Made by a program: the position numbers and the translations under genes | NCBI GenBank assembly: GCA_029259155.1 | Contig: JAPDJI010000001.1 | Location: forward strand, 8,042 to 72,041 | Direction of reading: 5' to 3' | From: Candidatus Methanomethylicia archaeon | GTDB taxonomy: Archaea; Thermoproteota; Methanomethylicia; Nezhaarchaeales; B40-G2 | DNA length: 64,000 bases | Shown: one piece after another, positions 6,703 to 22,811 of the stretch | Layout: the number at the start of each line of letters is the position of its first letter | Position numbering within the stretch: the stretch's first letter is position 1 | Notes under the pieces: model-generated | What the model was told of the DNA's origin: nothing | Database searches by the model: none | Seen by the model: the letters and a program-made list of their open reading frames with translations, nothing else

Positions 6703-7751
6703 CTGGCTTCCTCTATATGTTTAGCTATAACCTCGACGGGATCCTCCATGCTGGCTAAAGCTTTCCTCGCTCTCTTCTCTTGAGCTTTTCTTTCTATTCT
6801 TAAGTTACCAAGCACCTTTAGCCCTTCTTCGAGAGCCTCTTCGCTACTCCTAGCCTTACGTATCAATCCCAACTTAACCATGTACTTTTCGACATCGATA
6901 TCATCCACCGGAGTACATGAGATGGATGGGACGCCCATCAAGGCGGCCTCCCAGGTCATGGTTCCTCCTCCACCTATAAAGAGGCTTGTTTGTGGGAACA
7001 GCTTCAACGTGTCTATTACCTTGATTGGGACGAAGGCTACTCCTTTAAGCTTGCTTCGCAGTTCTTTGACCTGTTCGGGGTACCTAGCCAAGACCACTAT
7101 GTCTATTTCCTCACCTAGCTGTTCCTTTAGCCCTCTAGCCACCTTCTCCACCATCATCCTCCTCTCTTCCTTATTAAGGAGGTAGGACGCATAGATCTCC
7201 TCAGTCCTTATCACTACTAACTTCTTTCTTCTTCTGGTCTTTGAGGTTAGATCTTGATCCTTAAGCCAGGCAGCCGGATCGACAGCATTGTACTGAACTA
7301 TATCCTCGGAACGAGCTCCCAGCTTCGACCATTTCTCTATGGGAATACACTTTGGGGTGAAGAGCTTGGCTGAAAGAGGAATGGTCAGCTTAGCCACGGC
7401 TTCAGAGTGTGGACTATCATTAACACAGTAATGGGGTATTGCGAGACCATAAGCCACGCGTGCAGCTTCAGGGGAGCTGAAGGAGATCGCTATGTCAGGT
7501 CTCCAGTCCTTAACGACCTTTAATAGTCTTAGAGCTCTTTTGAGACTGGCTTGAAGTTTACCTGCGAGATCTGCTCCTCCATATTCTCCAACCACTATAG
7601 CGTCCATTCCCTTAGCCTTAAGCAGCTGTTCTACTTCTCTGTACTTCCTGGAGGTTTGAAGAACTTCATGGCCTTTTGCTTTGAGTATATCTATCAACCT
7701 ACCGAAGAATCGCACCTGTTTAGGTGTGTTCAAGTCTATCCAAACTCTCAA
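6699..7751 (-). CDS. DUF354-like GT-B fold protein (possible Agl24 / Alg13-Alg14 / MurG-like glycosyltransferase)
   Basis: N-terminal MRVWIDLNTPKQVRFF and a C-terminal Gly-rich loop GGGGTMTWEAALMGVPSI typical of GT-B C-domains. 350 aa. Adjacent to aglH. Confidence 0.45.
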   Translation of the reverse strand: MRVWIDLNTPKQVRFFGRLIDILKAKGHEVLQTSRKYREVEQLLKAKGMDAIVVGEYGGADLAGKLQASLKRALRLLKVVKDWRPDIAISFSSPEAARVAYGLAIPHYCVNDSPHSEAVAKLTIPLSAKLFTPKCIPIEKWSKLGARSEDIVQYNAVDPAAWLKDQDLTSKTRRRKKLVVIRTEEIYASYLLNKEERRMMVEKVARGLKEQLGEEIDIVVLARYPEQVKELRSKLKGVAFVPIKVIDTLKLFPQTSLFIGGGGTMTWEAALMGVPSISCTPVDDIDVEKYMVKLGLIRKARSSEEALEEGLKVLGNLRIERKAQEKRARKALASMEDPVEVIAKHIEEAS

Positions 7752-7901
7752 TTTATTACACCTTAGCTTGCATTAGCCTAAAGGTACCTAACCTTCCTTA
7801 TATGAAATTTTTACTCTAACCCTTGACGATGTAGACCTGCCGTAACACGCCCTTTGTTCACGTCTACTTCAAGAATTAATGGGCGTCCATGACGATCTAT
7901 C

Positions 7902-8429
7902 TTAAGGTCTGCCTTTGAAGAATCCTCGCTGCCTGTATAACGACAAAGCAATTAATAACGTCGCTACAACGAAGCCTTCGCTTGAAAGGACAACTCCTTC
8001 AGCCTCTACGAAAGGCGTGTAAGCCTCCACGGCCACTTTCTCTAAGAGCTTTAACGTAAAAGTAAGGGTAGGAATGCTAGATACATGTATATCTACCTGT
8101 ACCAGTAGCCAAAAGGAGTTAGGGTGAAGTGGCCAGAAGAGAGGTGTATAGCCGGTAAAGAAATCCAAGATTATATGTGAACAGTAGGCGGCAACCATAA
8201 TCAGTAATGTAGTACCCCTTACTTTCCTATTCCTTGAAAGTCCGTATAGGACTGGTATAGTAGCTAAAGGGAATATTAAGGAATGACTCATCGATCTATG
8301 TATATGTAGCAAGATATCGAGATCTGGCGTCGTGGATATTGCGGACGCCGCCAAGGAACGTTTAAGGTCTACTCCGAGCAGGGTAAGGGAGGTTAAAACC
8401 ACGGCGAAGTGAATAATGGGCTCAGGCAA
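7902..8429 (-). CDS. membrane-bound metal-dependent hydrolase-like protein (DUF457/YdjM-like)
   Basis: 175 aa, several TM segments and His-rich motifs (HIHRSMSHSLIFP, HIILDF). Confidence 0.4.
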   Translation of the reverse strand: MPEPIIHFAVVLTSLTLLGVDLKRSLAASAISTTPDLDILLHIHRSMSHSLIFPLATIPVLYGLSRNRKVRGTTLLIMVAAYCSHIILDFFTGYTPLFWPLHPNSFWLLVQVDIHVSSIPTLTFTLKLLEKVAVEAYTPFVEAEGVVLSSEGFVVATLLIALSLYRQRGFFKGRP

Positions 8430-8540
8430 CCATCATTACAGCTCAAACCTGACTCCGTAGAGGCTCCTCTATTTAAGACTTATTGAGGTTGGAAAGGCTT
8501 TTAACTTTAAGGACTCGTCGCTTTTGGTAGGGGTCCTCTA

Positions 8541-9923
8541 TTGCCTAAAATAATGGAAATGGATTCCTCTCAAGTGGCTGAGGCTGCAGCTCAAGGAGCC
8601 CTCTGCATAGCTGTCATAGGCTGCGGCTGGATGGGCTTACCTACAGCTCTGCTATTTGCTGAGACAGGAGCTAAAGTTATCGGGGTGGTGAAGTCTGAGG
8701 AAGAAGCATCTCTGCTTAATCAGGGAATCGCTACCGTAGCTGAGCCTGGCATAGAACCTCTCCTACGTAAACACGTGGAGAGCGGGAGGTTTAAGGTAAC
8801 TCTGGACGCTGCTAATGCGGCTTCTCAGGCTGATGCTATATTAATAATTGTGCCTACGCATGTGGGGAGGGGAAAGAAGCCTGACTACTCAGCCATTGTG
8901 GATGCTAGTAGGAACGTGGGCAGAGGGCTTATGAAAGGTAGCTTAGTGATCGTTGAGAGCACGGTTGGTCCAGGCGTAACGGAGGAGGTTGTTAAGTTTG
9001 AACTCGAAGAGGTTTCCGGCCTAAAAGCTGGCGTAGACTTCGGCTTAGCTTACAGTCCAATAAGGGCCAGCGCGGGAAGGGTCTTTAGAGACTTAACCTC
9101 TTATCCTAGGATTTTAGCGGGCTTTGATGAAAGAAGCTTTCATGCAGCCTCTTCTCTACTAAGCTTGATTGTGAAGGGAGGTATAATTAAGGTGAGGGAC
9201 ATTAAAACAGCAGAGGCAGTGAAGCTGTTCGAGAACATTTACCGAGATGTAAATATTGCCTTAGCCAATCAATTAGCGCTTTTCTGCGAAGCTGCGGGGA
9301 TTGACGTGGTGGAGGCCATTAATGCCGCCAATACCCAACCCTTCTGTCACTTACATAGGCCTGGAATGGGTGTTGGAGGTCACTGTCTCCCTTCTAACCC
9401 ATACTTCTTGCTGGAGAAGGCTAGGAAGCTTAAAGTAAACTTAGACCTTGTTCGGGCTGCAAGGAGAATCAACGATAGCATGCCCTTCCACACCATCAAG
9501 CTAATAACCGCTGCTCTGCGAAGCTGCGGTAAAACCTTGAAGGGCTCTCATGTGGCTATATTGGGAGTTTCCTTTAAGGAGGACGTTAAGGAACATCGAT
9601 ATTCGCCTTCCATTTACGTGGCGGAGAGGCTTATGAGGAGGGGTGTGAAGATCTCTATTTATGATCCTTTCTTCACACCTGAGGAACTTAGCGTACCGGG
9701 GGTGAGGATAGCCCCTACCCTAGAATCATGTGTAGAAGGTGTGGACTGCATACTTTTGGCGGTGGCTCACGAGAAATTTAAGTCATTAGATCTTAATCTA
9801 TTGGCTAAGCTCGTCAAAATGCCAGCAGCTTTGGTGGATGGCCGTCAAGTAATAGACCCTGTAAAGGCTAGGGAAGCAGGCTTTGTCTATGCAGGGATAG
9901 GGAGGGGCTTGGTTGTTGCGTAG
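8541..9923 (+). CDS. nucleotide-sugar dehydrogenase (UDP-glucose/UDP-ManNAc/GlcNAc 6-dehydrogenase family)
   Basis: N-terminal Rossmann IAVIGCGWMGLPTALLFAETGAKVIGV, a catalytic Cys region GGHCLPSNPYFL and a C-terminal UDP-binding domain. Confidence 0.85.
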   Translation: MPKIMEMDSSQVAEAAAQGALCIAVIGCGWMGLPTALLFAETGAKVIGVVKSEEEASLLNQGIATVAEPGIEPLLRKHVESGRFKVTLDAANAASQADAILIIVPTHVGRGKKPDYSAIVDASRNVGRGLMKGSLVIVESTVGPGVTEEVVKFELEEVSGLKAGVDFGLAYSPIRASAGRVFRDLTSYPRILAGFDERSFHAASSLLSLIVKGGIIKVRDIKTAEAVKLFENIYRDVNIALANQLALFCEAAGIDVVEAINAANTQPFCHLHRPGMGVGGHCLPSNPYFLLEKARKLKVNLDLVRAARRINDSMPFHTIKLITAALRSCGKTLKGSHVAILGVSFKEDVKEHRYSPSIYVAERLMRRGVKISIYDPFFTPEELSVPGVRIAPTLESCVEGVDCILLAVAHEKFKSLDLNLLAKLVKMPAALVDGRQVIDPVKAREAGFVYAGIGRGLVVA

Positions 9924-10881
9924 ATTAAAGGTAGCGGTAATAGGTTGCGGTTTTTGGGGGCTTAACCATGCAAGGGTATTTAAGGAACTTGACTCGGCAG
10001 AGCTGGTGGCTGTATCGGACGTTGATGAAGCGAGAGCCAGATTAGCCGGGGCTAAATACGGCGCTAAGTGGTATTCAGATAATCTGTCCCTGCTGGCGAA
10101 GGACGACGTGGATGCCGTAACGATATGTACACCCTCCTCTACTCATATGGAGGTGGCTATCCAAGCCATTGAGTACGGTAAAGACCTCCTCGTAGAGAAG
10201 CCTTTAGCTTCCTCTGCCGAGGAGGCTTTAAAGATCATTAAGGCTGCTGAGAAGGCAAACGTCAGACTCATGGTTGGCCACATAGAACGCTTTAACCCAG
10301 GTGTCAGGAAGGTTAAAGCTTTGATAGAGGAGGGCAGGGTCGGTGAAGTTGTGTTGCTTTCTTCGAGGAGGGTGTCTATGTGGCCAGTTAGAATCGGAGA
10401 TGTAGGAGTGGTTAAGGACTTAGCTATACATGATATAGACGTCATGAGGTTTCTGTTAAATAAGGAACCTACTGAAGTGTATGCTGTTGCGGGGAGTTTA
10501 AGGCATACCTATGAAGACTACGCGCACATAATCTTAAAGTTCGCCTCTAAGGAGGCAGGTTTCATAGAGGCTAACTGGTTAACGCCTCATAAAGTAAGGA
10601 AACTGATCGTAACATGCACTGAGGGCATAATCACCCTCGACTATATAACTCAGCAGGTAACTATTGAAGATTCTAGAGGCTCCCATACTCCGGCCTTCCA
10701 ATGGCAGGAGCCTCTGAAGCTTGAGCTTCAAAGCTTTGTAAACTCGCTTTTAGAGAATAGAAAGTTTGAGGTAGACGGTAAAGACGGCTACAGGGCTCTC
10801 AGCATAGCTGAAGCAGCTTTAAAGTCTGCGGCTCAGGGCTCCTCAGTAAAAGTGGGATACGAGGATTTAATGTTTAATTGA
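9913..10881 (+). CDS. Gfo/Idh/MocA family oxidoreductase (WbpB-like UDP-sugar 3-dehydrogenase candidate)
   Basis: LKVAVIGCGFWGLNHARVF, EKPLA and a C-terminal alpha/beta domain. Overlaps the dehydrogenase stop, so probably an operon. Confidence 0.8.
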   Translation: MLRRLKVAVIGCGFWGLNHARVFKELDSAELVAVSDVDEARARLAGAKYGAKWYSDNLSLLAKDDVDAVTICTPSSTHMEVAIQAIEYGKDLLVEKPLASSAEEALKIIKAAEKANVRLMVGHIERFNPGVRKVKALIEEGRVGEVVLLSSRRVSMWPVRIGDVGVVKDLAIHDIDVMRFLLNKEPTEVYAVAGSLRHTYEDYAHIILKFASKEAGFIEANWLTPHKVRKLIVTCTEGIITLDYITQQVTIEDSRGSHTPAFQWQEPLKLELQSFVNSLLENRKFEVDGKDGYRALSIAEAALKSAAQGSSVKVGYEDLMFN

Positions 10882-10967
10882 TTATTTAAAGTTTAGTGAA
10901 TCTCTTCAATTAACTTTTTATACACCTCAGTTAAAAAGCTACCCAGAGGTTGAAGGCTGGGGTATAG

Positions 10968-11687
10968 GTGAAGGTAGGAGCTAAGATAGCTAGTGGAAAA
11001 ACAAAAAACATCTATGAGCTGAATGACCCATCCCTCGTACTCATAGAGTTTAGGGACGACGTAACGGCCCTTGATGGGCGTAAGCGAGATTTTATCGCTG
11101 GTAAAGGAGCTATCAACGCTGCGATAACGGCAAAGCTCATGGAGGTGCTAAACACTTCTCAAACTCCTACACACTTCGTTAAGCTGGAGCCTCCTTCGGC
11201 TATAATAGCCAAGAGATTACGCATGTTACCCTTAGAGGTAGTATGCCGTAACATAGCTGCTGGCCACCTTGTTAAGCGCTTACCTTTCAAGGAAGGTGAT
11301 CTTCTCGACCCGCCTATTGTCGAGTTTTACTTAAAGGATGACGAGAGAGGGGATCCTATGGTTAATAAGAGGCACATGGCGGCTCTCGGCTTGGCTACAC
11401 CAAGCGAAGCGGAGTATATGGAGGAAGCTACGCTTAAAGCCAACGAGGTCTTAAAGAGGTTCTTAGCTTCCAGGGAGCTAACCCTCATCGACTTTAAGCT
11501 TGAGTTCGGTAAACTGCCTAATGGCTCCCTTATCATAGGAGATGAGCTTGACCCCGACTGTATGAGAATTAGAGACTCCTCGACGGGGAGGATCTTAGAT
11601 AAGGATCTTTATAGACGAGGGTCACCACTCGAGGAAGTCTTGAAGGCTTACTTGGAGTGTAAGAGGAGGATAGTTGAAGGTGGTTAG
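10968..11687 (+). CDS. purC: phosphoribosylaminoimidazole-succinocarboxamide synthase (SAICAR synthetase)
   Basis: GKTKNIYELNDPSLVLIEFRDDVTALDGRKRD is the PurC signature. 239 aa. Confidence 0.9.
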   Translation: MKVGAKIASGKTKNIYELNDPSLVLIEFRDDVTALDGRKRDFIAGKGAINAAITAKLMEVLNTSQTPTHFVKLEPPSAIIAKRLRMLPLEVVCRNIAAGHLVKRLPFKEGDLLDPPIVEFYLKDDERGDPMVNKRHMAALGLATPSEAEYMEEATLKANEVLKRFLASRELTLIDFKLEFGKLPNGSLIIGDELDPDCMRIRDSSTGRILDKDLYRRGSPLEEVLKAYLECKRRIVEGG

Positions 11688-13092
11688 AGAAGCCTGCGGA
11701 GTCATAGGAGTCTTATCAGCCAAGAAGGATCATGTCGCCTCTGATATATATAGAGGGCTCTACGCCCTGCAACATAGAGGTCAGGAAAGCGCAGGTATCT
11801 ATATATGTGGCTCTTCACCCATACAGGGCTTCAAGGGATTGGGCTTTGTTCATGAAGCGCTAAGCGGTAAAGCCGAGAATCTTGAAGGATGGTGTGGAGT
11901 AGGTCACGTAAGGTATTCCACTACCGCTAATTCTACAATTGAAGAAGCTCAACCTTTACTTTATGAATGTGCTGGTAGACGTTTTGCCTTAGCCTTTAAT
12001 GGTACTATATCTAACTACTTGGAGCTTAAAGAGAAGCTCGGCAAGGAAGGTTTCTCCTTCAAGACGATGACTGACACTGAAGTCTTAGCTGCTCTCCTAT
12101 CGCTTAACTTGGCTGAGACAGGGGACTACGTGGGAGCCTTAAGACGATGTATGGAACAGCTTGAAGGCGCGTACTCGCTGGTCATCCTCGATGAAGGAGG
12201 AGAACTATATGTAGCGCGTGATCCTTTAGGGTTTAAACCGCTATGTTTAGGCTTAAACCATGACCGTGAACTCTACGTGGTGGCTTCTGAGAGCTGCGCT
12301 TTAGACACTTTGAACGCTCAGTTATTGATGCATGTTGAGCCAGGCATGGTAATGAGAGTATATGATGGAGGCTACGAAGCTAAAAGGATGGTTACGTCAA
12401 GACGCCACGCACGCTGCATGTTTGAGTACGTATACTTCTCTCGTCCCGACTCGGAGTTTGATGGGATATGGATCTACGAAGCTAGACTTAAGATAGGCAG
12501 AGAGCTCGGTAAACGTTTTCCTGCTGAAGCTGACGTGGTCGTGCCTGTACCTGATTCGGGTAGGACAGCAGCCATAGGGTTCTCAGAAGCTACGGGAATA
12601 CCGTTGGTGGAGGGTTTAATGAAGAACCGTTACGTGGGAAGGATTTTCATAATGCCTGGTGAACGTAACCGAAATGAAATGGTCAGAGTCAAGTTGAACC
12701 CTATAAAGCCATTGATTAAAGGTAAACGCGTGGTATTGATTGATGACTCCATCGTCAGGGGGACCACCATGAAGTACATAGTAAGTCTTCTACGTGGAGC
12801 GGGAGCAGAGGAGGTTCACGTTAGGATCAGCTGTCCACCTATAATAGCTGGATGTTACATGGGTATTGATTTTCCTACTCGACGAGAACTAGTGGCTTCA
12901 TCACATAGCATAGAGGAGATAAGGGACATGTTAGGAGCTAACTCGCTTCACTATAATTCCATAGAAGGCTTAGTTAAAGGAATAGGCTTGCCTAGAAACG
13001 AGTTATGCTTAGCTTGTCTTACCGGGGAGTATCCTATCAAGGCTGATGCCTCGCTTTTGGAGAAGGCTATAGGTGAGATGAGGAGGCCTTAA
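11674..13092 (+). CDS. purF: amidophosphoribosyltransferase
   Basis: Ntn CGVIGV after a short propeptide, a PRTase VVLIDDSIVRGTT motif and a C-terminal 4-Cys cluster (SCPP...GCY...CLAC). Confidence 0.9.
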   Translation: MKVVREACGVIGVLSAKKDHVASDIYRGLYALQHRGQESAGIYICGSSPIQGFKGLGFVHEALSGKAENLEGWCGVGHVRYSTTANSTIEEAQPLLYECAGRRFALAFNGTISNYLELKEKLGKEGFSFKTMTDTEVLAALLSLNLAETGDYVGALRRCMEQLEGAYSLVILDEGGELYVARDPLGFKPLCLGLNHDRELYVVASESCALDTLNAQLLMHVEPGMVMRVYDGGYEAKRMVTSRRHARCMFEYVYFSRPDSEFDGIWIYEARLKIGRELGKRFPAEADVVVPVPDSGRTAAIGFSEATGIPLVEGLMKNRYVGRIFIMPGERNRNEMVRVKLNPIKPLIKGKRVVLIDDSIVRGTTMKYIVSLLRGAGAEEVHVRISCPPIIAGCYMGIDFPTRRELVASSHSIEEIRDMLGANSLHYNSIEGLVKGIGLPRNELCLACLTGEYPIKADASLLEKAIGEMRRP

Positions 13093-13652
13093 TGTTCTTC
13101 CTGTTTGGCTACCATAACTTCCGTAGCCTTAATGACCGCTTCCACCACGTCACCTTCTCGCAATCCTAGCTCTTCTGCGGCCTCCTTGGATATGAGTGAG
13201 GTTATGGTGACAGGTTCCTGTACTTCAATTTTCACCTTAGCTGCTACGCCGTTTACTATTACTTCCTTGACGACTCCCCTAATCCTATTTCTAGCACTTA
13301 TCTTCAAGCCTAGAGCCTCCCAGCCTTCAGTATCGCATCTTACACTCTCAAAGAAGCCTTCAAGCCTTTTATATTTCCTTAAAAGCTCTCTCCCTGCTTC
13401 ACTCAGTCTAGTTCCACCTCCCTTTCTACCTCCTCTACGGGTTTCCACCACGGGAGATCCTATGGCTTCAGACATTCTGTTTAGATAGTCCCACACGTAC
13501 TTATAGGACATTCCTAGCTCCTTGGCAGCCTTGGCTATGGAGCCTAACCTATCTACGGCCTCTAAAATAGCGGCTCCTCCCTTACCGACGATGTGTCCTG
13601 TTGGTCCCTCCATCCATATCCTTACATTAGGTGAAAACTTCGCTTCGCTCAT
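13089..13652 (-). CDS. ModE-like transcriptional regulator (N-terminal ModE HTH plus a single C-terminal TOBE/Mop domain)
   Basis: ILEAVDRLGSIAKAAKELGMSYKYVWDYLNRM and ETRRGGRKGGGTRLSEAGRELL match the ModE N-domain. ISARNRIRGVVKEV is a TOBE motif. Confidence 0.7.
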   Translation of the reverse strand: MSEAKFSPNVRIWMEGPTGHIVGKGGAAILEAVDRLGSIAKAAKELGMSYKYVWDYLNRMSEAIGSPVVETRRGGRKGGGTRLSEAGRELLRKYKRLEGFFESVRCDTEGWEALGLKISARNRIRGVVKEVIVNGVAAKVKIEVQEPVTITSLISKEAAEELGLREGDVVEAVIKATEVMVAKQEEH

Positions 13653-14083
13653 TGTTTTACATGTTAACTCCCTGTGTCCTTAATATTTATCGGACTCTGC
13701 GTAAGATCAGCCCTCAACTCCCTAACTATTCACTAGAAAAAGATTGATGAAACTTAAGTAACCGGCATATACAAGGCTGATATATCGTGGTGTCGATGGG
13801 TAAGCGCACCGCATGAGAAGCTGTTCTCGCCATCGCCTAGGCCTGTACGCTGCTGTGATTTACATCTGAAGAAACGAGGAGCTTAAGGTTGACGTGGATC
13901 CCATACTTAAAGCTATAGTTGGTAGAAGATCTTTCACGAAGCTCGAAATCAAGGTAGGGGTCGGAGGTGTACTTGATCTTTAAGGAACCTCCGTTAAGCT
14001 TCTCTAAAGATTAGGTTGAACACTTAAAAACTAGTTTCGTTGAACCGTAACTGTATTCGTTTAAGTTTAAGGGAGGATGTATA

Positions 14084-15424
14084 TTGGCAGGTATAATAGG
14101 TATATATGCGTTTGATGAGCTGTGGAAGATCTCGCGCTTCGTATACTACGGCCTCCTCGCGCTTCAACATAGAGGTCAGGAAACCTGCGGCATAGCTACC
14201 TTCGACCGTGAAGGCCTGCACTCATATACATCATCAGGAGTGGCGGATAGAGTTTTCAACGAAGAGACACTCACCAATCTTCCAGGATGGGCTGGAATCG
14301 GCCACGTCAGTCCTCAGCTACCGAGTGAGGGAGTATTACAGCCAGTTGTCGTAGCCGATCCTGTTAAACTAGCGTTTTGCTTTAATGGCAAACTCTTGAA
14401 CGCTGATGTATTAGCTAAGGAGCTGGGCATTATTGAAGCGTCTGAGGCAGAGGTCTTTGCGAAGCTCTTATCTAGACTATTAACTCGCTTGGACCCTATG
14501 GAGGCAGCAGCCGCGGCTATGGAAAAAGCTCTGGGAGCCTATAGCTTCGTAGCCTTAACGGAGAGAGGAGAGATGATAGCGGCGAGAGACCCTTCAGGTC
14601 TAAAGCCTCTAGTTATAGGTAGTTTCGGTTTCGATTACGGCGTGGTTGCTTCTGAGTCCTCAGCCATAGATGTGGTGGGTGCGGAGTTTAAAGCTGACGT
14701 GGAGCCTGGGGAGGCCTATGTCTTCACCCCCTACAGCATCGAGAGGCGAAGGCTGTTTAAACCTAAACCTAGGTATTGTGCTTTTGAGTACGTGTACTTT
14801 GCTAGACCGGACTCGATTATTAATGAACGCAGCATTTATGAAGTTAGGATAAAGATAGGAGAGCGGCTAGCGAAGGAACATCCTGTCGAGGCTGACGTAG
14901 TAATAGGGGTACCTGAGACCGCCATACCTTTCGCTATGGCCTACTCTAACGTCACCAAGGTACCTATAGCTATGGGCTTTGTGAGGACAGGTCCCCATAT
15001 AAGGAGTGCTATCAAGCCAACTCAGTTTGAAAGGCTTGTAGGCGTTCAACTTAAGTTGAACCCCATAAGATCTGCGATTAAAGGGAAACGCATAGTGCTT
15101 ATCGATGATAGCGTGGTTAGAGGCAACACAACTAAGAACACTGTGACGTTAATGAGAAATAAGCTGGGCGTTAAGGAGGTTCATGTTAGGATCGGGAGTC
15201 CCAGGCTTATAGCTCAATGTCCCTTTGGCGTGGAGGTTCCGTCGAGGGATGAGCTTATAGCAGCCCACTTAAATGATGAGGAGGTGGCAGCAGTTGTTGG
15301 GGCTGACTCCTTCCATTGGCTTTCGCTCGAGGGCCTTATTGAAGCGATAGGTGTCTGCAAGGAGAACTTATGTTTGGGCTGCTTTACAGGTGAATACCAA
15401 ATAGATGAAATGTGTCGTCGATAG
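14084..15424 (+). CDS. amidophosphoribosyltransferase paralog lacking the N-terminal catalytic Cys
   Basis: Full-length PurF architecture (RGQE, PRTase IVLIDDSVVRGNT, C-terminal CLGCFTGEY), but the N-terminus is (M)AGIIGIY instead of CGI/VxG. TTG start 8 nt downstream of GGAGG. An upstream in-frame stop rules out an extension. Confidence 0.8.
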   Translation: MAGIIGIYAFDELWKISRFVYYGLLALQHRGQETCGIATFDREGLHSYTSSGVADRVFNEETLTNLPGWAGIGHVSPQLPSEGVLQPVVVADPVKLAFCFNGKLLNADVLAKELGIIEASEAEVFAKLLSRLLTRLDPMEAAAAAMEKALGAYSFVALTERGEMIAARDPSGLKPLVIGSFGFDYGVVASESSAIDVVGAEFKADVEPGEAYVFTPYSIERRRLFKPKPRYCAFEYVYFARPDSIINERSIYEVRIKIGERLAKEHPVEADVVIGVPETAIPFAMAYSNVTKVPIAMGFVRTGPHIRSAIKPTQFERLVGVQLKLNPIRSAIKGKRIVLIDDSVVRGNTTKNTVTLMRNKLGVKEVHVRIGSPRLIAQCPFGVEVPSRDELIAAHLNDEEVAAVVGADSFHWLSLEGLIEAIGVCKENLCLGCFTGEYQIDEMCRR

Positions 15425-15467: not shown

Positions 15468-16190
15468 ATGTTTCGAAAGAGGGCCTACTGGCAGCTATTG
15501 CTAGAGTTTGGTGAACAAGAATTTACCGTTGAGCAGGCAGGAAGAATCTTACATCCACGAACTCCTACACCTCTTCTTCTTCATAGGCTATGTAGCGACG
15601 GTTTTCTTGAGAGAGTTTCGAGAGGGAGGTTTAGGGCGTTAAACCCTTTCATCGTAGCGTTGAGGGAGATGGGCTTTGACTGGAGGGATAAGGTAAAGCA
15701 GAAAGCTTACCTACCTATGCTCGATTTTGTCGTGGCGAGACTTGTCAGCGGTCTCTTAGGCCGGCTGCGCTCGTTGATAGTGTTCGGCTCTATAGCTTCA
15801 GGTAGGGCTAAGCCTGAGAGTGATGTTGACCTCTTAGTTGTCAGTGAAGGCTTACCGGAAAAATACTCTGATAGGTTGAGGTTGTTTAATTCGCTTGTCG
15901 AGGGGGTGGAGGAGGTTAGGTTAAGGCTTTGGCGAAGTGAAGGCATCTATCCGCTGCTAGACCCGATTCTCCTACTACCTGAAGAGGCTCTCATAAGCCA
16001 CCCCTTCTACATAGATATGTGGGAGGAGCATATCATAGTTTACGATAGAGACAGGTTTATGGAGAAGAAGCTTGAGCAGGTTAAGGCTAAGTTAATGGAG
16101 CTTGGTGCAAGGAAGGTGATCGCACCTGATGGAAGCTGGTTCTGGTTGTTAAAGCCAAGCGTACACCGTGGAGAGGTCGTATCGCTATGA
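15468..16190 (+). CDS. nucleotidyltransferase (MNT-type antitoxin) with N-terminal winged-helix extension
   Basis: GSIASGRAKPESDVDLLVV is the minimal NTase GS...DxD motif. The N-terminal ~100 aa look wHTH-like (FTVEQAGRIL...LERVSRGRFR). Confidence 0.7.
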   Translation: MFRKRAYWQLLLEFGEQEFTVEQAGRILHPRTPTPLLLHRLCSDGFLERVSRGRFRALNPFIVALREMGFDWRDKVKQKAYLPMLDFVVARLVSGLLGRLRSLIVFGSIASGRAKPESDVDLLVVSEGLPEKYSDRLRLFNSLVEGVEEVRLRLWRSEGIYPLLDPILLLPEEALISHPFYIDMWEEHIIVYDRDRFMEKKLEQVKAKLMELGARKVIAPDGSWFWLLKPSVHRGEVVSL

Positions 16191-16615
16191 GGACGGACGT
16201 GATGGCTCGAGATTATTTAAGGAGGGCTGCATCGAGGCTTCTGGACGCTAACTCAGCTTTAAGCCGTGGAGACTGTCCTGAGGTTGTTAGGTACTCACAA
16301 GAATGTGTTGAACTTTCCCTCAAGGCTTGTCTAAGGGCAGTAGGCGTAGAGTACCCTAAGGTTCACGATGTCGGAGACCTCCTCCTCGTGAGCCTTGATA
16401 GGTTTCCAAGCTGGTTTAAAGAGGTAGCTAGCAAGTTGGCTGAGTTTTCTAGGAGCTTAGCTGAGAAGAGGTCTCCAGCTATGAATGGGCTGGAGCTTTT
16501 AGGTAAACCTCCCAGCGAGCTTTTCGGTTTCGATGAGGCTAAGGAGGCGTACGAGGAGGCTGTTTTCACGCATAATGTGGCTAAGCGCTTCATAGAGGAG
16601 TTTTTAGGTCAATAA
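16187..16615 (+). CDS. HEPN domain protein (toxin partner of MNT)
   Basis: ECVELSLKACLRAVGVEYPKVHDVGDLL fits the HEPN helix pattern. Has a 4-nt ATGA overlap with the upstream MNT gene. Confidence 0.7.
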   Translation: MRTDVMARDYLRRAASRLLDANSALSRGDCPEVVRYSQECVELSLKACLRAVGVEYPKVHDVGDLLLVSLDRFPSWFKEVASKLAEFSRSLAEKRSPAMNGLELLGKPPSELFGFDEAKEAYEEAVFTHNVAKRFIEEFLGQ

Positions 16616-16763: not shown

Positions 16764-18248
16764 TTGGTTAAAGTCCTACTTGTAGGCGACGCCTCGAGGG
16801 AAAATGCAATAGCTGACGCTTTGGCTAGGAGTACTAAGGAGCCTAGGCTTTATGCCGTGATGAAATTAAGGAACCCAGGCATAGCTAGGCTCTGTGAACA
16901 GACAGGGGGGGAGTTTTACTTAGGGAATTTCACGGATCCTAAAGTTGTAGTTGACGCAGCGTCTCGCTATTCAGTAGACCTAGTATTCATAGGGCCTGAA
17001 GAACCACTCTTCAGAGGTGTGGCTGATGCTTTAACGGAGGCAGGCTTCCCTTGCGTAGGTGCTTTGAAGGCAGCGGCTGAGGTTGAGATGTCTAAGGCTT
17101 TCATGAGGAGGCTTATGTGGAAGTACAATATCCCGGGTAGGTTGAGGTTTAAGGCTTTTAAGAACGTTGAAGACGCTATCGCCTACATCGCTGCGTACGC
17201 TGAAAGCATTGCTTTAAAACCTGCTAGACAAGCTGGAGGTAAAGGCGTGAAGGTCATAGCAGACCTCCAAGTATACCTCAGCAAGGAGAAGCAGGAGGTG
17301 AAGTCGAAACACGCTCAAGTTATACATGAAAAACACATGGCCGAGTACACCGACATAGAGGACCGTATATTGATAGAGGAGAGAGTTGAGGGACCTGAAT
17401 ACACGCTTCAAACCTTTACCGACGGCAGGACGGTTAGGCCGCTACCCTTAGTCCAAGACAATAAAAATGCCTTTGAAATGGATATAGGCCCTGAGACCGG
17501 CGGTATGGGCTCCATAGCTGGGCCAGGTTTAACCCTACCTTTCATAACCGAGGACGAATTTGAACGCTCCGTTGAAATAGTGAGGCGCGTCGTGGAAGCT
17601 ATCTGGAAGGAAACGGGAGTCAGGTATAAGGGCGTTATCTCAGGGCAAATGATGCTCACGGCTTTATGGGGACCCACCATAATAGAGTTCTATAGCAGGC
17701 TTGGCGACCCTGAAGCGTGCAACGTGCTTCCTATCCTTAAAACAGACCTTCTCGAAGTGGCGGAAGCCATAGTGAAGGAGAGCCTACATAAGGTCAAGCT
17801 AGAGTTTGAAGAGGGGGTAGCTACGGTGGTTAAGGCAGTGGCTCCTCAGGGCTACCCTGACCACCGTGACCTAGCTAAGGGACATCCTGTGCAGGTGGAC
17901 GAGGAAGCTATTAGGCGTAAAGGATGCATCATCTACTACGGCTCTGTCAACCAGAACCTGGATGGCTCTTTAGTTACAGGTGGCTCTCGCGTGGCTGAGA
18001 TTGTGGCTAAGTCTAAGACCATACCTGAAGCTGGCGAAATAGCTGAAGAATGCGTGCCTTATGTTAAGCTCCTCGATGGCTGGAAAACTTTCCACCGAAG
18101 CGATATAGGGAGTGAGACTCTTCTCAAGAGGAGGATGGAGCAGGCTGAGCTGATAAGGGACATATACAGGTATAGGATGTCGAAAGGCCTAGTAGGCAAG
18201 GTAATCGACTGGATACCTGGAAGAGGGAAGATCGAAACTACGCTCTAA
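16764..18248 (+). CDS. purD: phosphoribosylamine-glycine ligase (GAR synthetase)
   Basis: ATP-grasp with PurD motifs FIGPEEPL, GPETGGMG, GDPE, TGGSRV and FHRSDIG. The N-terminal loop reads GDASRENA instead of GxGGREHA. Confidence 0.85.
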   Translation: MVKVLLVGDASRENAIADALARSTKEPRLYAVMKLRNPGIARLCEQTGGEFYLGNFTDPKVVVDAASRYSVDLVFIGPEEPLFRGVADALTEAGFPCVGALKAAAEVEMSKAFMRRLMWKYNIPGRLRFKAFKNVEDAIAYIAAYAESIALKPARQAGGKGVKVIADLQVYLSKEKQEVKSKHAQVIHEKHMAEYTDIEDRILIEERVEGPEYTLQTFTDGRTVRPLPLVQDNKNAFEMDIGPETGGMGSIAGPGLTLPFITEDEFERSVEIVRRVVEAIWKETGVRYKGVISGQMMLTALWGPTIIEFYSRLGDPEACNVLPILKTDLLEVAEAIVKESLHKVKLEFEEGVATVVKAVAPQGYPDHRDLAKGHPVQVDEEAIRRKGCIIYYGSVNQNLDGSLVTGGSRVAEIVAKSKTIPEAGEIAEECVPYVKLLDGWKTFHRSDIGSETLLKRRMEQAELIRDIYRYRMSKGLVGKVIDWIPGRGKIETTL

Positions 18249-18262
18249 CCTTAAACCTCGCT

Positions 18263-19705
18263 GTGCGGCTCCGTGAAGCTTTAAAGCTTCAGGAACCTCA
18301 AGGTAGCAGCGGTGGTGGAATGACAATTAAGCCTAGAGAGTACTTGGGCACCCCTCTTTTTGAAGGAGCTGTTAAGCTTCTACTTTTAGGCTCAGGAGAG
18401 CTTGGCAAGGAAATAGCCATAGAGGCTACTAGGATGGGGGTCGAGGTAATAGCGGTGGATCGCTACGAGAACGCGCCGGCAATGCAGGTGGCTCATAAAA
18501 GCTATACCGTCAATATGCTCGACGGAGCAGCGCTGAAAGCTATAGTGCATAGAGAGAAACCTGACGTCATAGTACCTGAGATAGAGGCTATTAACACCGA
18601 TGCCTTAGTGGAGCTCGAGGAGGAAGGCTTCTTCGTCATACCTAACGCTAAGGCTGTCAAGGCTACCATGGATAGGGTTCTACTAAGAAAATTGGCTGCT
18701 GAAGAAGCAGGGGTTCCAACCTCTAGGTATGAATTTGCTGAAAACCTCGATGAACTCAAAGACGCCTGCGAGAAGGTAGGCTATCCATGCATAGTTAAGG
18801 CGCAGATGAGCTCGGGCGGCCTCGGCTCTAGCCTAGTATTTAGCCTCAACGAGGTTCCAAAAGCCTTCGAAGAGGCTCGTACGAAGGCGAGAGGGTTTGG
18901 AGGTAGGATGATAGTGGAGGGCGTCATAGAGTTCGACCTTGAGGTTACGGAGCTAGCGGTAGCTCACCTGGGTGATGACGGAAAGATGAAGATAAGCTTT
19001 CCTAAACCGGTAGGCCATGTCAGGTCGGGTAGCCACTACCATGTCAGCTGGCAGCCCTTCTTAGACTTGGATGAGCAGGCAGGCATGACTAAATCGCCGG
19101 TGGAAGGTTATGGTAGCCAACGACACCTAGCCGAAGATCCTCCCAGAGGAAAGCTTCTATGGAGCTCTAAATGGAATGGGAAATATGTGCCTAAGGAGGT
19201 TGTGGAGGAAGCTGAGCGCAAGATATACGATGTGGCCGGTAAGGTGGTCTCTAGGCTTTTAGGAGATAGAGGTGGCTTAGGGCTTTTTGGCTGCGAAATT
19301 TTCGTTAAACTAGGCGAAGATAATGGAAAGCCAGAGGTCTATTTTAATGAGATCTCGCCTAGGCCTCACGACACAGGGATGGTTACTATGATCACCCAAG
19401 ACCTCTCTGAAATGGCTCTCCACGTAAGGGCGGTGCTAGGCCTACCTATACCTGAAATAAGGCTTAGGAGCATAGGCGCAGCCCACGTGATCTTATCCCA
19501 TAAGGATGGAAGGTGGGCTCCAAGATATCGAGGTGTCTGGGAGGCTTTGAGCATGCCAGGGGTTCATGTAAGGCTTTTCGGTAAACCTGTTACTTACTTT
19601 GAGCGTAGAATGGGTTTAGCATTAGCCACTGCTTCCTCCATTACTGAGGCCAGGGAGAAGGCTTTGAAGGCAGCTCATCTACTAGAGTCTAAGATACAAT
19701 ATTAG
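18263..19705 (+). CDS. purT: formate-dependent phosphoribosylglycinamide formyltransferase (GAR transformylase 2); likely true start at ATG 18320
   Basis: Near-colinear with E. coli PurT: [71 protein letters not shown]. Carries a ~40 aa insertion after SWQP. Confidence 0.8.
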
Positions 19706-19706
19706 G

Positions 19707-20150
19707 GTGTTTTTCTTGATCACTCCACTTATAGCTTTAATCATGGGCAGTGAGTCTGATCGACCTATAGCTGAAAAAGCAATCAAGTTATTAGAGAAGC
19801 TTTCCATTCCCTTTGAGTCGAAGGTATTATCGGCGCATCGGAACCCTAAACAACTTGAAGAATACATCGAGAAATGCACCGCCGAGGTCTTCATAGCTAT
19901 CGCTGGCCTCTCAGCCCATCTACCCGGCTTCATAGCTTCAAGAACCCTTAAACCAGTAATAGGGGTACCTGTAGGTGCTAAGCTGGGGGGACTTGACGCT
20001 CTCTTATCCATCGTTCAAATGCCTAGAGGAGTGCCAGTTGCTTGTGTAGGGATTGATAATGCTGAGAACGCAGTCCTCCTAGCAGCTGAAATATTGGCGC
20101 TTAAGTATCCTGAAGTAGCTGAGAGCCTCAAACACTACAGGATGGCTTAA
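19707..20150 (+). CDS. purE: N5-CAIR mutase / AIR carboxylase
   Basis: [14 protein letters not shown]...SAHRNP... and GVPVG are PurE motifs. 147 aa. Confidence 0.9.
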
Positions 20151-20198
20151 TGGCCAATAGCCAAAATAGCTATTAAGCCTAATACTGATTTCTAAACC

Positions 20199-21269
20199 GT
20201 GTCTGAGGAAGGCTGGACCTATGCTAAGAGCGGCGTGGACCTAGCTAGGGTTAAGAAGGCTCATCGCGACATAGCTAGGCTCTTATCGTCCACCTTTAAG
20301 CTCAGGGAGGGTAAGGTAGGTAAGGTGCTATCTTCGATAGGGCATTACGCTGGATTAATCGATGTGGGAGGAGGGTTAGCGCTAGCCCTCCATGCTGATG
20401 GAGTAGGGACGAAGGTTCTTGTTGCCCAACTCGTGGATAGATACGATACGGTAGGTATAGATTGCGTGGCTATGAACGTCAACGACCTGGTATGTATAGG
20501 TGCGGAGCCCATAGCCTTGGTTGACTACTTGGTGGTGGAGAGGGCAGAGGAGGATATGATAGCGGAGATTATGGAGGGGTTGGTAAAGGGGGCCGAATTA
20601 GCTGAGGTGGCTATTGTGGGTGGGGAAACGGCTGTAATGCCTGATGTAATTAAAGGAGAAGTAGAAGGGAAAGGCTTTGACCTTGCTGCCCTCAGCATAG
20701 GGGTAGTAGATCGACGCCTCATCTTGACGGGATCTAAGCTTAGACCTGGAGACGTTATAGTGGGCGTGGAGAGCAACGGTATACATAGTAACGGTCTTAC
20801 GTTAGCTCGTAAGGTACTACTTCAAGATAGGTCGGTGTACGACTCTTTGCCTGAGCTTGAATGTAGCATAGGCGAGGAGCTGCTTAAGCCCACTTTCATC
20901 TACGTCAAGCCAACGCTTAAAGCCTTAAAGAGTTTAGAGCTACACGCAATTGCTCACATAACGGGTGGCGCCTTCACAAAGCTGAGGAGATTTGAAGAGT
21001 ATTCACGTGTAGGCTTTAAGCTAGATGGAATGCCTGAGCCTCCGCCTGTGTTTAAGGCCATTAAGAGGCTAGGCAAGGTTTCGTGGGAGGAGATGTATAA
21101 AACCTTTAACATGGGTATAGGGCTCTGCTTAATGCTTAGCTCAGAACAGGTAGACGATGCCGTAGGTTTCTTCGAGAAGGAAGGCTTTAAGGCTAGGCCT
21201 ATAGGCAAGGTCGTTGACGAGCCAGGGGTAACGGTTAATGTACCGGGATATGGATTTATAGAGGTTTAA
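20199..21269 (+). CDS. purM: phosphoribosylformylglycinamidine cyclo-ligase (AIR synthetase)
   Basis: YAKSGVDL... with the PurM N- and C-domains (AIRS). 356 aa. Confidence 0.9.
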   Translation: MSEEGWTYAKSGVDLARVKKAHRDIARLLSSTFKLREGKVGKVLSSIGHYAGLIDVGGGLALALHADGVGTKVLVAQLVDRYDTVGIDCVAMNVNDLVCIGAEPIALVDYLVVERAEEDMIAEIMEGLVKGAELAEVAIVGGETAVMPDVIKGEVEGKGFDLAALSIGVVDRRLILTGSKLRPGDVIVGVESNGIHSNGLTLARKVLLQDRSVYDSLPELECSIGEELLKPTFIYVKPTLKALKSLELHAIAHITGGAFTKLRRFEEYSRVGFKLDGMPEPPPVFKAIKRLGKVSWEEMYKTFNMGIGLCLMLSSEQVDDAVGFFEKEGFKARPIGKVVDEPGVTVNVPGYGFIEV

Positions 21270-21310: not shown

Positions 21311-22117
21311 ATGTTTGAAATCCTCCTCCCCAAGGAAATGAAACCTAACACCATGGTAGAGGTCTACCTCCTTGTTGAACCTTTTATAAGAGCTAGGTGG
21401 CCTTTCCACTATGGTCTTACTAAGAAGAGGCCGACGTCTGCTCTAGAATACATGGCTGGAGGTATACCTACCAGTCATGGATGCTTAGTTCTTTGGTACT
21501 TAGGTCTGGATTGGCCTCTTTTCTTTAGAGAAGCATCAGATAAGCTTGATGGGTACGTATTGGATGAGCTCAAAGAACTGATAGCTAAAGGTAACTACAT
21601 GAAGGCTAGGAGGCTGTTACATAGACTAGACAGGTCTAAATTAAAGTCCATTCTCCTAGCTCGCAAAGGTTTAGTAAAGCACCTCGAATATGAATTGATT
21701 TTATCTATCCCCATACCAACGGAGGTAGAGGGGGTAGACGTAGAGCTAGAGATTTCTTCCATGGCTCGGTCTTTGGGGTCTCTTCTAGATTTTCGTAGGA
21801 GGGTTGTTGAGGGTAAGTCTCCATTCCTCGACGTTGAGTTACTTAAATGGCGCGTACCTATGGCTGATCCGTTAGAGATCTATGGTATCTATGAAGAGTT
21901 TTCCGGCGACGTAGAGGAGGTACTAAAGCTTGCTGTGAGCGAGCTGCTAGCAATAATACATGAAAGTATGAGTAGACCAGCATACATAGCGATAGTTAGA
22001 GGAGATGTTAACGCGGAGCGGACGTTAAGCGACTTTGAAGCTGAGTTAAGCAGGGAATTATCACCTATTGTGCGTTATGTTAACCCTTCTTCCATCTTCG
22101 CCACTTTAGTCTCGTAG
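21311..22117 (+). CDS. conserved hypothetical protein
   Basis: 268 aa ORF directly downstream of purM. No recognisable motif. Confidence 0.4.
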   Translation: MFEILLPKEMKPNTMVEVYLLVEPFIRARWPFHYGLTKKRPTSALEYMAGGIPTSHGCLVLWYLGLDWPLFFREASDKLDGYVLDELKELIAKGNYMKARRLLHRLDRSKLKSILLARKGLVKHLEYELILSIPIPTEVEGVDVELEISSMARSLGSLLDFRRRVVEGKSPFLDVELLKWRVPMADPLEIYGIYEEFSGDVEEVLKLAVSELLAIIHESMSRPAYIAIVRGDVNAERTLSDFEAELSRELSPIVRYVNPSSIFATLVS

Positions 22118-22154: not shown

Positions 22155-22811
22155 ATGTATGAAAGGGTTAGACTAGCTATGACCAAGTTCCTTGGTATAT
22201 TTAGAGAACTTCCCGAGGAGGAGGAGCTGGTCTTTACACCTAAATCATCGGTTCCTACCCTCTTCGCTAGGGAGATGGAAATAAGGAAGCTGATGGGAGT
22301 TGAACGTAAAGAACAGCCTCTCATATATGCTGTGGCGTACCCATACCTAACTGACAAGCGCTTAATAATCCTCGCTCTCCACCAAGTGGAGTCTAAGACC
22401 CTAACTGAACGTAAAGCTCCGAGGATGGCTGCTAGGTCAGGTGCATGGCTGGATATCCCCCTTAGTTCAATAAGTGTGGCTGAGCTTAGATCAATAGAGG
22501 TTAAGAAAGACCGAGATCTTTCAGGTTTTCTAGACTGGAGCGGTTTCAGAGAGGCACTTGTCGAACGTTCACCTGCGATAGAGGTTATCTACGACGAGAA
22601 GCAGGCCTCAGGCAAAGTAAAAGATTACATTGATCTAGTCGCTGAAATGGGCTTCATAGTTAAGGACCCTAGGAAAGTGGAGCGCTCATACGATAAAGTA
22701 TTCTTAATAGGGGAAATGATGGTTGAAGACTTCTTACCATTACTTAAGGAACAGCTTGAGAAGACCTTAGAGATCAGGGAGAGCTCTGAAAGCGAGGAGG
22801 CTCTAGCTTAA
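22155..22811 (+). CDS. conserved hypothetical protein
   Basis: 218 aa ORF with an acidic C-terminus. No recognisable motif. Confidence 0.4.
   Translation: MYERVRLAMTKFLGIFRELPEEEELVFTPKSSVPTLFAREMEIRKLMGVERKEQPLIYAVAYPYLTDKRLIILALHQVESKTLTERKAPRMAARSGAWLDIPLSSISVAELRSIEVKKDRDLSGFLDWSGFREALVERSPAIEVIYDEKQASGKVKDYIDLVAEMGFIVKDPRKVERSYDKVFLIGEMMVEDFLPLLKEQLEKTLEIRESSESEEALA

Follow-up and report, generated by a model that had tools for sequence, protein, structure and literature searches.

PurF′, a PurF paralog with a dismantled glutaminase site encoded between purF and purD in archaea, as a candidate ammonia-dependent aminotransferase of purine synthesis

PurF, a textbook example of an amidotransferase, performs the committed step of purine synthesis. 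In the stretch of 64,000 nucleotides from a Candidatus Methanomethylicia archaeon that was analyzed here (contig JAPDJI010000001.1, positions 8,042 to 72,041; referred to as the window, with coordinates counted from its first letter), a canonical purF gene is accompanied by a second purF-like gene at 14084-15424, whose product lacks the cysteine nucleophile (Cys1) of the glutaminase domain. The closest described proteins are those named PurF′ in a survey of archaeal purine genes, which reported that each Crenarchaeon has both a Cys-bearing PurF and a PurF′, and that the latter falls in a separate cluster, is without the Cys (often having Ala or Val instead), and is encoded near purF and other purine genes (Brown, Hoopes, White, and Sarisky, 2011, Biol Direct 6:63; PMC3261824). 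Those authors suggested that PurF′ is an ammonia-dependent phosphoribosyl pyrophosphate (PRPP) aminotransferase and called for experiments (PMC3261824); full-text literature searches found no characterization of PurF′ later than that work. By its description and its residue signature the window gene encodes this PurF′; the tree presented below was built from the sequences found here, not from the locus tags of the 2011 study. It is thus a member of a family named in 2011 and a specimen ordinary for its lineage, and the family itself arose by an old duplication of the glutamine PRPP amidotransferase of the [4Fe-4S] type, its gene normally residing between purF and purD.

Several comparisons place the window protein relative to these known systems. 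Like the PurF′ proteins of the 2011 study, it is a second PurF-like protein without the Cys, belongs to a separate cluster, occurs with PurF at one copy each per genome, and is encoded near purF. Unlike that set, it comes from an uncultured lineage, is parted from both purF and purD by inserted genes, keeps N102 and G103 (residue numbers are those of Bacillus subtilis PurF unless Escherichia coli numbering is stated), and adjoins a subclade that has kept Cys1. With canonical enzymes of the B. subtilis type (1ao0/1gph; Arabidopsis 6lbp) it shares the two-domain fold at 39% identity, the four cysteines of the iron-sulfur (Fe-S) cluster, the PRPP loop, the Arg and Lys of the flexible loop, and the QHRGQE motif; it departs from them in having neither Cys1 nor a propeptide, in the replacement of R72, Y73, and T75, and in the remodelling of the flexible loop and the pyrophosphate (PPi) loop. 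The parts of the gene that bear on these comparisons, including those of the phosphoribosyltransferase (PRTase) domain, are as follows.

14071..14076, + strand: GGGAGG ribosome-binding site, 7 nt before the purF′ TTG start, read directly
14084..15424, + strand: purF′, 446 aa, TTG start; glutaminase site apparently dead, PRPP site intact, four Fe-S Cys
14084..14770, + strand: N-terminal nucleophile (Ntn)-type glutaminase-like domain, about aa 1-229; C1A, R72S, Y73P, T75L, D127E, with N102 and G103 kept
14087..14089, + strand: GCA (Ala) codon at the Cys1 nucleophile position, which would be the N-terminal residue after Met removal
14777..14779, + strand: Cys232 codon, equivalent to B. subtilis C236
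14984..15061, + strand: PRTase flexible loop, aa 301-326, R-T-G-P-H-I-R-S-A-I-K-P-T-Q...V-Q-L-K-L-N, a PurF′ signature
15104..15130, + strand: PRPP-binding loop D-D-S-V-V-R-G-N-T, aa 341-349
15218..15220, + strand: Cys379 codon, equivalent to B. subtilis C382; the ligand earlier taken as lost
15371..15382, + strand: C430-L-G-C433, equivalent to B. subtilis C437 and C440

The beginning of the protein is well defined. The original prediction, which was made from the letters of the window and a list of their open reading frames (ORFs), proposed a TTG start with a good Shine-Dalgarno sequence and a loss of Cys1 from a product beginning AGIIGIY, and both proposals stand: the ribosome-binding site is in place, and in alignment with the PurF proteins of B. 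subtilis and Arabidopsis the N-terminus M-A-G-I-I-G-I-Y puts Ala on Cys1 and Gly on Gly2. It was equally right that the upstream in-frame sequence runs into a stop without a Cys-Gly. This sequence reads stop(14048)-L-Y-S-F-K-F-K-G-G-C-I, and between the stop and the TTG there is no ATG, GTG, or TTG and likewise no Cys-Gly. Its sole Cys precedes an Ile, is displaced by 3 residues from the register set by the conserved Gly2, and either overlaps the ribosome-binding site or comes immediately 3′ of it. An upstream start that would supply a Cys-Gly is rejected on these grounds, as is the ATG at 14077, which is in another frame and opens an ORF of 12 codons.

The same arrangement is found throughout the family. 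Residue counts refer here to 106 Cys-less PurF′ and 120 PurF sequences, and those for the Fe-S columns to all 117 full-length PurF′. Met alone precedes position 1 in 95/106 Cys-less PurF′, orthologs starting M-[A/S/P/G/T/V]-G, and the residue at position 1 is small and permits Met removal in all 106. Canonical PurF has a propeptide of 3-38 residues in 119/120 cases, and the minority of PurF′ that keep the Cys have one of 4-19 residues. The start codon has shifted where the Cys and self-cleavage were lost, and therefore the same mature N-terminus has been kept, which suggests that PurF′ continues to require a chain end at this buried position.

Loss of the nucleophile is accompanied by loss of most of the glutamine site. 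In E. coli PurF, a glutamine analogue is held by Arg73, Thr76, and Gly102 (PMC7953260). At the positions of E. coli R73, Y74, T76, and D127, which are invariant or nearly so in the 120 PurF sequences, the window protein has S, P, L, and E (R72S, Y73P, T75L, and D127E in B. subtilis numbering). N102 and G103, the oxyanion-hole residues N101-G102 of the E. coli enzyme, remain in the window protein, whereas most other PurF′ carry Asp or Ser at the Asn position. In the family as a whole, 106 of the 117 full-length matches have A, S, P, G, T, or V in place of Cys1 (A34/S32/P22/G8/T5/V5). Position 72 is never Arg in these 106, Y73 has become P, A, S, or T, T75 is lost, D or S mostly takes the place of N102, and position 127 varies; an acidic residue is absent from both 102 and 127 in 16/106. 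The window protein has no N-terminal Cys nucleophile and also scores just below the cut-off of the NCBIfam purF model (TIGR01134; 344.5 versus 350 bits). Two class-II glutamine amidotransferase models and a PRTase domain of Pfam are recognized in it. These observations support the view, put forward in the original prediction, that the protein is glutaminase-dead, and extend it to a clade of more than 100 sequences: lacking both the nucleophile and the Arg, Tyr, and Thr that bind glutamine, Cys-less PurF′ would be unable to hydrolyze it.

A minority of the family has a different N-terminal domain. Eleven of the 117 full-length PurF′ (P0016, P0021-23, P0025, P0026, P0028, P0030, P0033, P0035, and P0037) keep C1, N102, G103, and D127 together with the propeptide, yet carry S72/P73 and the PurF′ loop signature. 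They fall into two groups within the clade, one of which (P0016/P0021/P0022) is sister to the subclade of the window protein (A1, N102, E127), and Cys1 has thus been lost more than once within PurF′. The one Cys-keeping copy with readable context, at about 9995-11332 of a Jordarchaeum locus (L003), lies between a canonical purF and purD. Judging from the residues retained, the Cys-keeping PurF′ may still hydrolyze an amide.

The Fe-S site was thought in the original prediction to have been reduced to three cysteines, a claim that alignment overturns. The ligands of B. subtilis PurF, which we take to be C236, C382, C437, and C440, correspond in the alignment with 1ao0 to C232, C379, C430, and C433 of the window protein, so that ligand loss is rejected. 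The site is complete because all four ligand positions are Cys, as in enzymes of the B. subtilis [4Fe-4S] class, and the same columns are Cys in 120/120 PurF and 117/117 PurF′ (237 archaeal sequences). The Cys of the “ISCPP” motif in the canonical PurF of the window (PurF1) is Ser375 in B. subtilis (“ISSPP”) and is replaced by “IASPP” in Arabidopsis GPRAT2 (6lbp); it is not a ligand, because both of these enzymes carry the cluster without it. As a separate observation, archaeal canonical PurF has this fifth Cys in 119/120 sequences (the 12790-12800 region of PurF1), in the column of B. subtilis 375 and seven residues before C382, and the column is Ser in 117/117 PurF′.

The PRTase half of the protein is conserved to a degree that contrasts with the dismantled glutamine site. 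All 106 Cys-less PurF′ retain D345, D346, S347, R350, G351, T353, R311, P316, K328, Y242, R245, and D247, as well as R26 and G27 of the QHRGQE motif, E239, and P281, and I314 is kept in 99/106. The window protein accordingly has the D-D-S-x-V-R-G-x-T loop of type I PRTases and the counterparts of E. coli Arg332 and Lys349, the latter being K328. In E. coli PurF the substrate analogue cPRPP is contacted by Lys349, residue 258, Arg371, Thr374, and Thr333 (PMC7953260; residue 258 is given there as Thr258, though it is Tyr in the sequence). These contacts are all retained in PurF′, with Ser or Thr at the position of Thr333. Among the residues that we take to line the ammonia channel (E. coli I335, L415, Y258, F254, Y74, and F334), the first four are kept and the last two have become small, F334 being Ala in 106/106.

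Superimposed on this conservation is a signature of 26 near-invariant positions at which PurF′ differs from PurF, and the window protein has 26/26. Most are found around the PRTase site, in the PPi loop (G-V-P-E-T-A-I-P-F) and at T306-G307, A313, G324, and Q326, with N356, G374-S375, P383, and D392 as further positions on the PRTase side; three, W14 and G182-F183, are in the N-terminal domain. In the flexible loop of the window protein, R311 and K328 are kept and N306T, R307G, F313A, and R326Q are changed. The predicted structure (AlphaFold2, from a 40-sequence alignment) is confident, with a mean predicted local distance difference test score (pLDDT) of 88.5 and a predicted template modelling score of 0.87; it matches PurF structures with TM-scores of 0.87-0.89 (0.87 to 1ao0), and pLDDT is low only at residues 304-323, the flexible loop, which is disordered in PurF without substrate (PMC7056826). 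Residue conservation, alignment, and predicted fold all agree with the original prediction that the PRTase domain is intact.

Among 5.8 billion proteins searched, homologs with 50-99% identity to the window PurF′ form a graded series; they come from Nezhaarchaeota, Thermoprotei, Bathyarchaeia, Hecatellales, Freyarchaeota, Hadesarchaea, and Thaumarchaeota/Nitrososphaeria, the closest being labelled Nezhaarchaeota or Thermoprotei. In a neighbor-joining tree of the 120 best PurF′ matches and 120 relatives of the window canonical PurF, all 120 PurF′ tips group in a single clade that contains no PurF and is set off by a long stem (0.33). The window PurF′ is 50-85% identical to members of this clade, against 35% in the N domain and 45% in the C domain to PurF1 of its own genome. 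A Sulfolobales representative (L012) carries the PurF′ signature, and the family extends far beyond Crenarchaeota, into Bathyarchaeia, Nitrososphaeria, Methanomethylicia, Asgard archaea, Hadesarchaea, and Theionarchaea. The paralog phylogeny that the original prediction proposed as a check therefore recovers a separate PurF′ clade.

Measures of constraint point in the same direction as the residue counts. When both proteins are compared across the same 18 genomes (153 pairs), PurF′ has mean identities of 0.41 in the N domain and 0.57 in the C domain, versus 0.40 and 0.49 for PurF, and the C domain is better conserved in PurF′ than in PurF in 130/153 pairs. Comparison of the window with its closest relative, L001 (85% identical), shows saturation at synonymous sites (proportion of synonymous differences, pS, 0.68-0.86), and the proportion of nonsynonymous differences (pN; N/C domain) is 0.13/0.06 for PurF′ versus 0.21/0.11 for PurF. 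In pairs from Bathyarchaeota, the ratio of nonsynonymous to synonymous substitution rates (dN/dS) of PurF′ is 0.07-0.22. The window purF′ is thus intact and under selection rather than decaying.

The surroundings of the gene are similarly constrained. In the window the order is purC-purF-(regulator)-purF′-(nucleotidyltransferase-HEPN)-purD-purT-purE-purM, so that, as in the PurF′ set of 2011, the gene lies near one for a Cys-bearing PurF and other pur genes.

10968..11687, + strand: purC (SAICAR synthetase), the most upstream gene of the cluster
11674..13092, + strand: canonical purF, 472 aa; 7-residue propeptide, then Cys1 (...REACGVIGV); NCBIfam purF 474.7 bits, cut-off 350
13089..13652, - strand: ModE-like regulator with helix-turn-helix and TOBE (molybdate-binding-like) domains, between purF and purF′; convergent with purF, with a 4-nt overlap at the purF stop
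15468..16615, + strand: nucleotidyltransferase (15468-16190) and HEPN (16187-16615) genes, between purF′ and purD
16764..18248, + strand: purD (GAR synthetase; consumes phosphoribosylamine); in most relatives its start lies only a few bases from the purF′ stop
18263..21269, + strand: purT (18263-19705), purE (19707-20150), and purM (20199-21269), the remaining cluster genes

The first purF does encode a protein with a processed-Cys N-terminus (ACGVIGV) and is followed by the regulator, as originally described, and PurF1 is fully canonical, with all glutaminase and PRTase residues present. A scan of loci, with one genome per species, found PurF′ in nine groups: Nezhaarchaeales, Jordarchaeum and Wukongarchaeum (Asgard), Hecatellales, Methanomethylicia, Bathyarchaeia, Nitrososphaeria, a Sulfolobales metagenome-assembled genome (MAG), and Theionarchaea. 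All 19 loci with both genes complete have a purF for a Cys-bearing protein upstream of purF′ and on its strand, immediately so in 18, which also answers the question, raised with the original prediction, of whether both copies are conserved in relatives. purD follows purF′ in all 16 loci whose contig reaches that far. The distance from the purF stop to the purF′ start is -16 to +24 nt, and the purF′ stop and purD start overlap by 4 nt in 9/15 loci. The purF-purF′ pair is also present in Hadesarchaea (L082) and, with a 4-nt overlap, in another lineage (L083). Exceptions to the tight purF-purF′-purD arrangement are the window and L001, both of which have insertions: where the window has the ModE/TOBE regulator, L001 has an 827-aa ORF (7447-9930), and in this lineage the purF/purF′ junction appears to be a hot spot for insertions. 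The presence of such a gene in a pur operon had been called unusual; it is instead the rule, because purF-purF′-purD is conserved across Thermoproteota, Bathyarchaeia, Nitrososphaeria, Methanomethylicia, Asgard archaea, Hadesarchaea, and Theionarchaea.

What PurF′ does can be approached from this pattern of losses and retentions. The original prediction offered ammonia-dependent phosphoribosylamine synthesis and a regulatory or scaffold role, which are also the alternatives of the 2011 study (PMC3261824), and both are left standing by the present results. To the first, which we favor, we give about an even chance, namely that PurF′ is a glutamine-independent PRPP aminotransferase that makes phosphoribosylamine from PRPP and ammonia and acts with PurF and PurD. 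An ammonia-dependent function is suggested because the Fe-S ligands, the PRPP residues, and the hydrophobic end of the channel have been kept while the glutamine site has been lost. In the proposed mechanism, the mature N-terminus of PurF′ would be brought to the PurF position by the start codon and Met removal instead of autoprocessing. Replacement of Cys1, of Arg72 and Thr75, which bind glutamine, and of Tyr73, which acts as a gate, in most cases by small residues, would abolish glutamine hydrolysis, and the emptied glutamine pocket and widened channel mouth could serve as an entry route for ammonia. The retained PRPP-holding residues, Fe-S ligands, and hydrophobic channel residues at the PRTase end would then allow phosphoribosylamine to form from PRPP and ammonia, and PurF′, working beside canonical PurF, would hand this labile product to the co-expressed PurD.

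A functional precedent is provided by E. coli PurF in which Cys1 was changed to Ala or Ser, which, as relayed in the 2011 study, no longer uses glutamine but still accepts ammonia as nitrogen donor (Mei and Zalkin, 1989, via PMC3261824). Those mutants carry single laboratory changes in an otherwise intact site, whereas the PurF′ site is wholly dismantled and many changes have become fixed. If PurF′ does use free ammonia, purine synthesis in these archaea would be partly uncoupled from glutamine, in lineages that include Thermoproteota, Bathyarchaeia, the ammonia-oxidizing Nitrososphaeria, some Asgard archaea, and others, in all of which a second, glutaminase-dead copy stands between purF and purD. 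The signature residues and the conserved gene triad make the question of function easy to test, and in annotation 14084-15424 should read PurF′ and not amidophosphoribosyltransferase.

Several points weigh against ammonia-dependent synthesis. The use of ammonia by PurF′ is a prediction from residue conservation. An independent isozyme might be expected to be separately regulated and sometimes to occur alone, whereas PurF′ is always beside purF and usually coupled to it in translation, which fits a stoichiometric partner at least as well. Variation at K305 (E. coli K326), substitution of N306 and R307, and differences at several PPi-loop residues (PDSG to PETA) mean that the active site is not identical to that of PurF. 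Nor does the old pocket hold a universal ammonium-binding motif, because N102 is mostly Asp or Ser and the 16/106 proteins without an acid at 102/127 lead us to reject such a residue as a general trait. Finally, the family is not uniformly glutaminase-dead, because its 11 Cys-keeping members retain Cys1, N102, G103, and D127.

As the main alternative, it could be that PurF′ is a non-catalytic partner, or pseudoenzyme, in a mixed tetramer with PurF, possibly docking PurD, a reading that we consider possible but on balance unlikely. Such a partner might tune feedback inhibition or stability or pass phosphoribosylamine to PurD, and its conserved PRPP site would serve to sense a ligand or to hold a product. 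The start of the flexible loop, which in PurF forms the allosteric nucleotide site, is altered in a fixed way (K305 variable, N306T, R307G), and the N domain has invariant residues of its own (W14, G182-F183) that would suit a new surface or interface. The adjacency of purF and purF′, usually with purD next, on one strand and with short gaps or overlaps, is typical of subunits made in a fixed ratio; in the window, however, the insertions break this coupling and purF′ is served by a separate ribosome-binding site. PurF assembles as a homotetramer (PMC7056826), and there is kinetic evidence for channeling from PurF to PurD in E. coli, with no stable complex (review, PMC10912719); any interaction of PurF′ with PurF or PurD is putative. 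Against a non-catalytic role stand the invariance of all PRPP-contacting and Mg- and ribose-binding residues and a C domain conserved above that of PurF in most genome pairs. The partner hypothesis is weakened because such conservation of the PRPP site exceeds the usual need of ligand sensing. If PurF′ were nonetheless a partner subunit, the first purine enzyme of these archaea would have a different quaternary design.

An analogy for such a partner is HisZ, a catalytically dead paralog of histidyl-tRNA synthetase that is the regulatory subunit of the ATP phosphoribosyltransferase HisG. There, too, a dead paralog has been retained because an enzyme that opens a nucleotide-linked pathway depends on it as a partner. 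HisZ differs in that fold and pathway are unrelated and that its partner HisG is non-homologous, whereas PurF′ would be the partner of its own paralog. The ammonia-using and partner functions are not mutually exclusive.

A comparison of 18 canonical PurF proteins adjoining PurF′ with 57 PurF that have no adjacent PurF′ suggests one way in which the two might be combined. All glutaminase residues are kept in 18/18 of the former. In their PRTase domain, R245 is lost in 6/18, D247 in 6/18, N306 in 10/18, and K328 in 6/18, and T353S is found in 7/18; these five positions are intact in 57/57 of the latter. Conceivably, PurF and PurF′ form an obligate mixed enzyme in which PurF supplies the glutaminase and PurF′ the best-preserved PRPP site with an opened ammonia path, with coupling to PurD protecting the unstable phosphoribosylamine. 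Such a division of labor suggests itself because the losses in the two proteins are complementary, but we offer it tentatively and think it rather unlikely. The cases come from few related lineages (Bathyarchaeota, Nitrososphaeria, and Sulfolobales) and so represent few independent loss events, the window PurF1 is fully canonical, and the known ammonia channel runs within one subunit. The PRTase-eroded PurF proteins belong to loci L009, L015, L016, L017, L022, and L023 (also L008, L010, L011, and L012), just upstream of position 10001 or equivalent, and in them YFSRPDS has become YFGHPSS or YFANPSS, K328 is E or W, N306 is D, H, or T, and the flexible loop has a 4-residue insertion.

A different chemistry, in which PurF′ would use PRPP for transfer to a non-ammonia nucleophile or run a reaction with a new ligand bound in its remodelled N domain, appears improbable. 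It would account for the clustering of the 26 clade-specific substitutions around the PRTase active site, and some PurF′ keep Cys1, N102, G103, D127, and the propeptide without the glutamine-binding Arg and Tyr; a different amide substrate could follow because the Cys1 site is kept while those two residues are gone. Yet the place of the gene between purF and purD is constant across phyla, the retained hydrophobic channel residues at the PRTase end fit a small neutral nucleophile such as NH3, and PurF′ is not called for by any PRPP-dependent step that these organisms lack.

That 14084-15424 is a decaying pseudogene or has a mis-called start concealing a real N-terminal Cys, the two outcomes named in advance as fatal to the original prediction, has next to no probability and is excluded: the absent Cys1, the TTG start, and the NCBIfam score below cut-off would suit it, but the 446-codon frame is intact, the upstream sequence offers neither an in-frame start nor a Cys-Gly before the stop at 14048, 95/106 orthologs start at the equivalent M-[A/S/P/G/T/V]-G, purifying selection is stronger than on PurF of the same genome pair, and the fold is predicted with confidence.

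Other PurF homologs with changed glutaminase sites or duplicated genes lie outside the PurF′ clade. In the pur cluster of a Tissierellaceae MAG (L029, about 10001-11344), a bacterial PurF homolog begins (L)SGVFGIY, with Ser1 and D102 and with R72/Y73 kept. In a Methanomassiliicoccales MAG (L045, 9809-11401) there are two tandem purF-like genes, the first with Cys1 but N72, S103, and E127; the second was not cleanly readable and was dropped. These two loci possibly represent independent erosion of the glutaminase site. Mlab_0150 of Methanocorpusculum labreanum, in turn, is a recent lineage-specific duplicate of the local purF and stands outside the old PurF′ clade (PMC3261824).

Two features of the window pur cluster deserve mention apart from PurF′ itself. 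Directly 3′ of purM and on the same strand are two ORFs, at 21311-22117 and 22155-22811 (268 and 218 aa), for which no Pfam match was found at E ≤ 1e-5 and which could be further pur-cluster genes. The nucleotidyltransferase/HEPN pair between purF′ and purD is of toxin-antitoxin-like type. A HEPN domain is also fused to the C-terminus of PurF in Methanospirillum hungatei (Brown et al., 2011, PMC3261824), and with that fusion and the window pair a HEPN beside a PurF homolog has now been seen twice.

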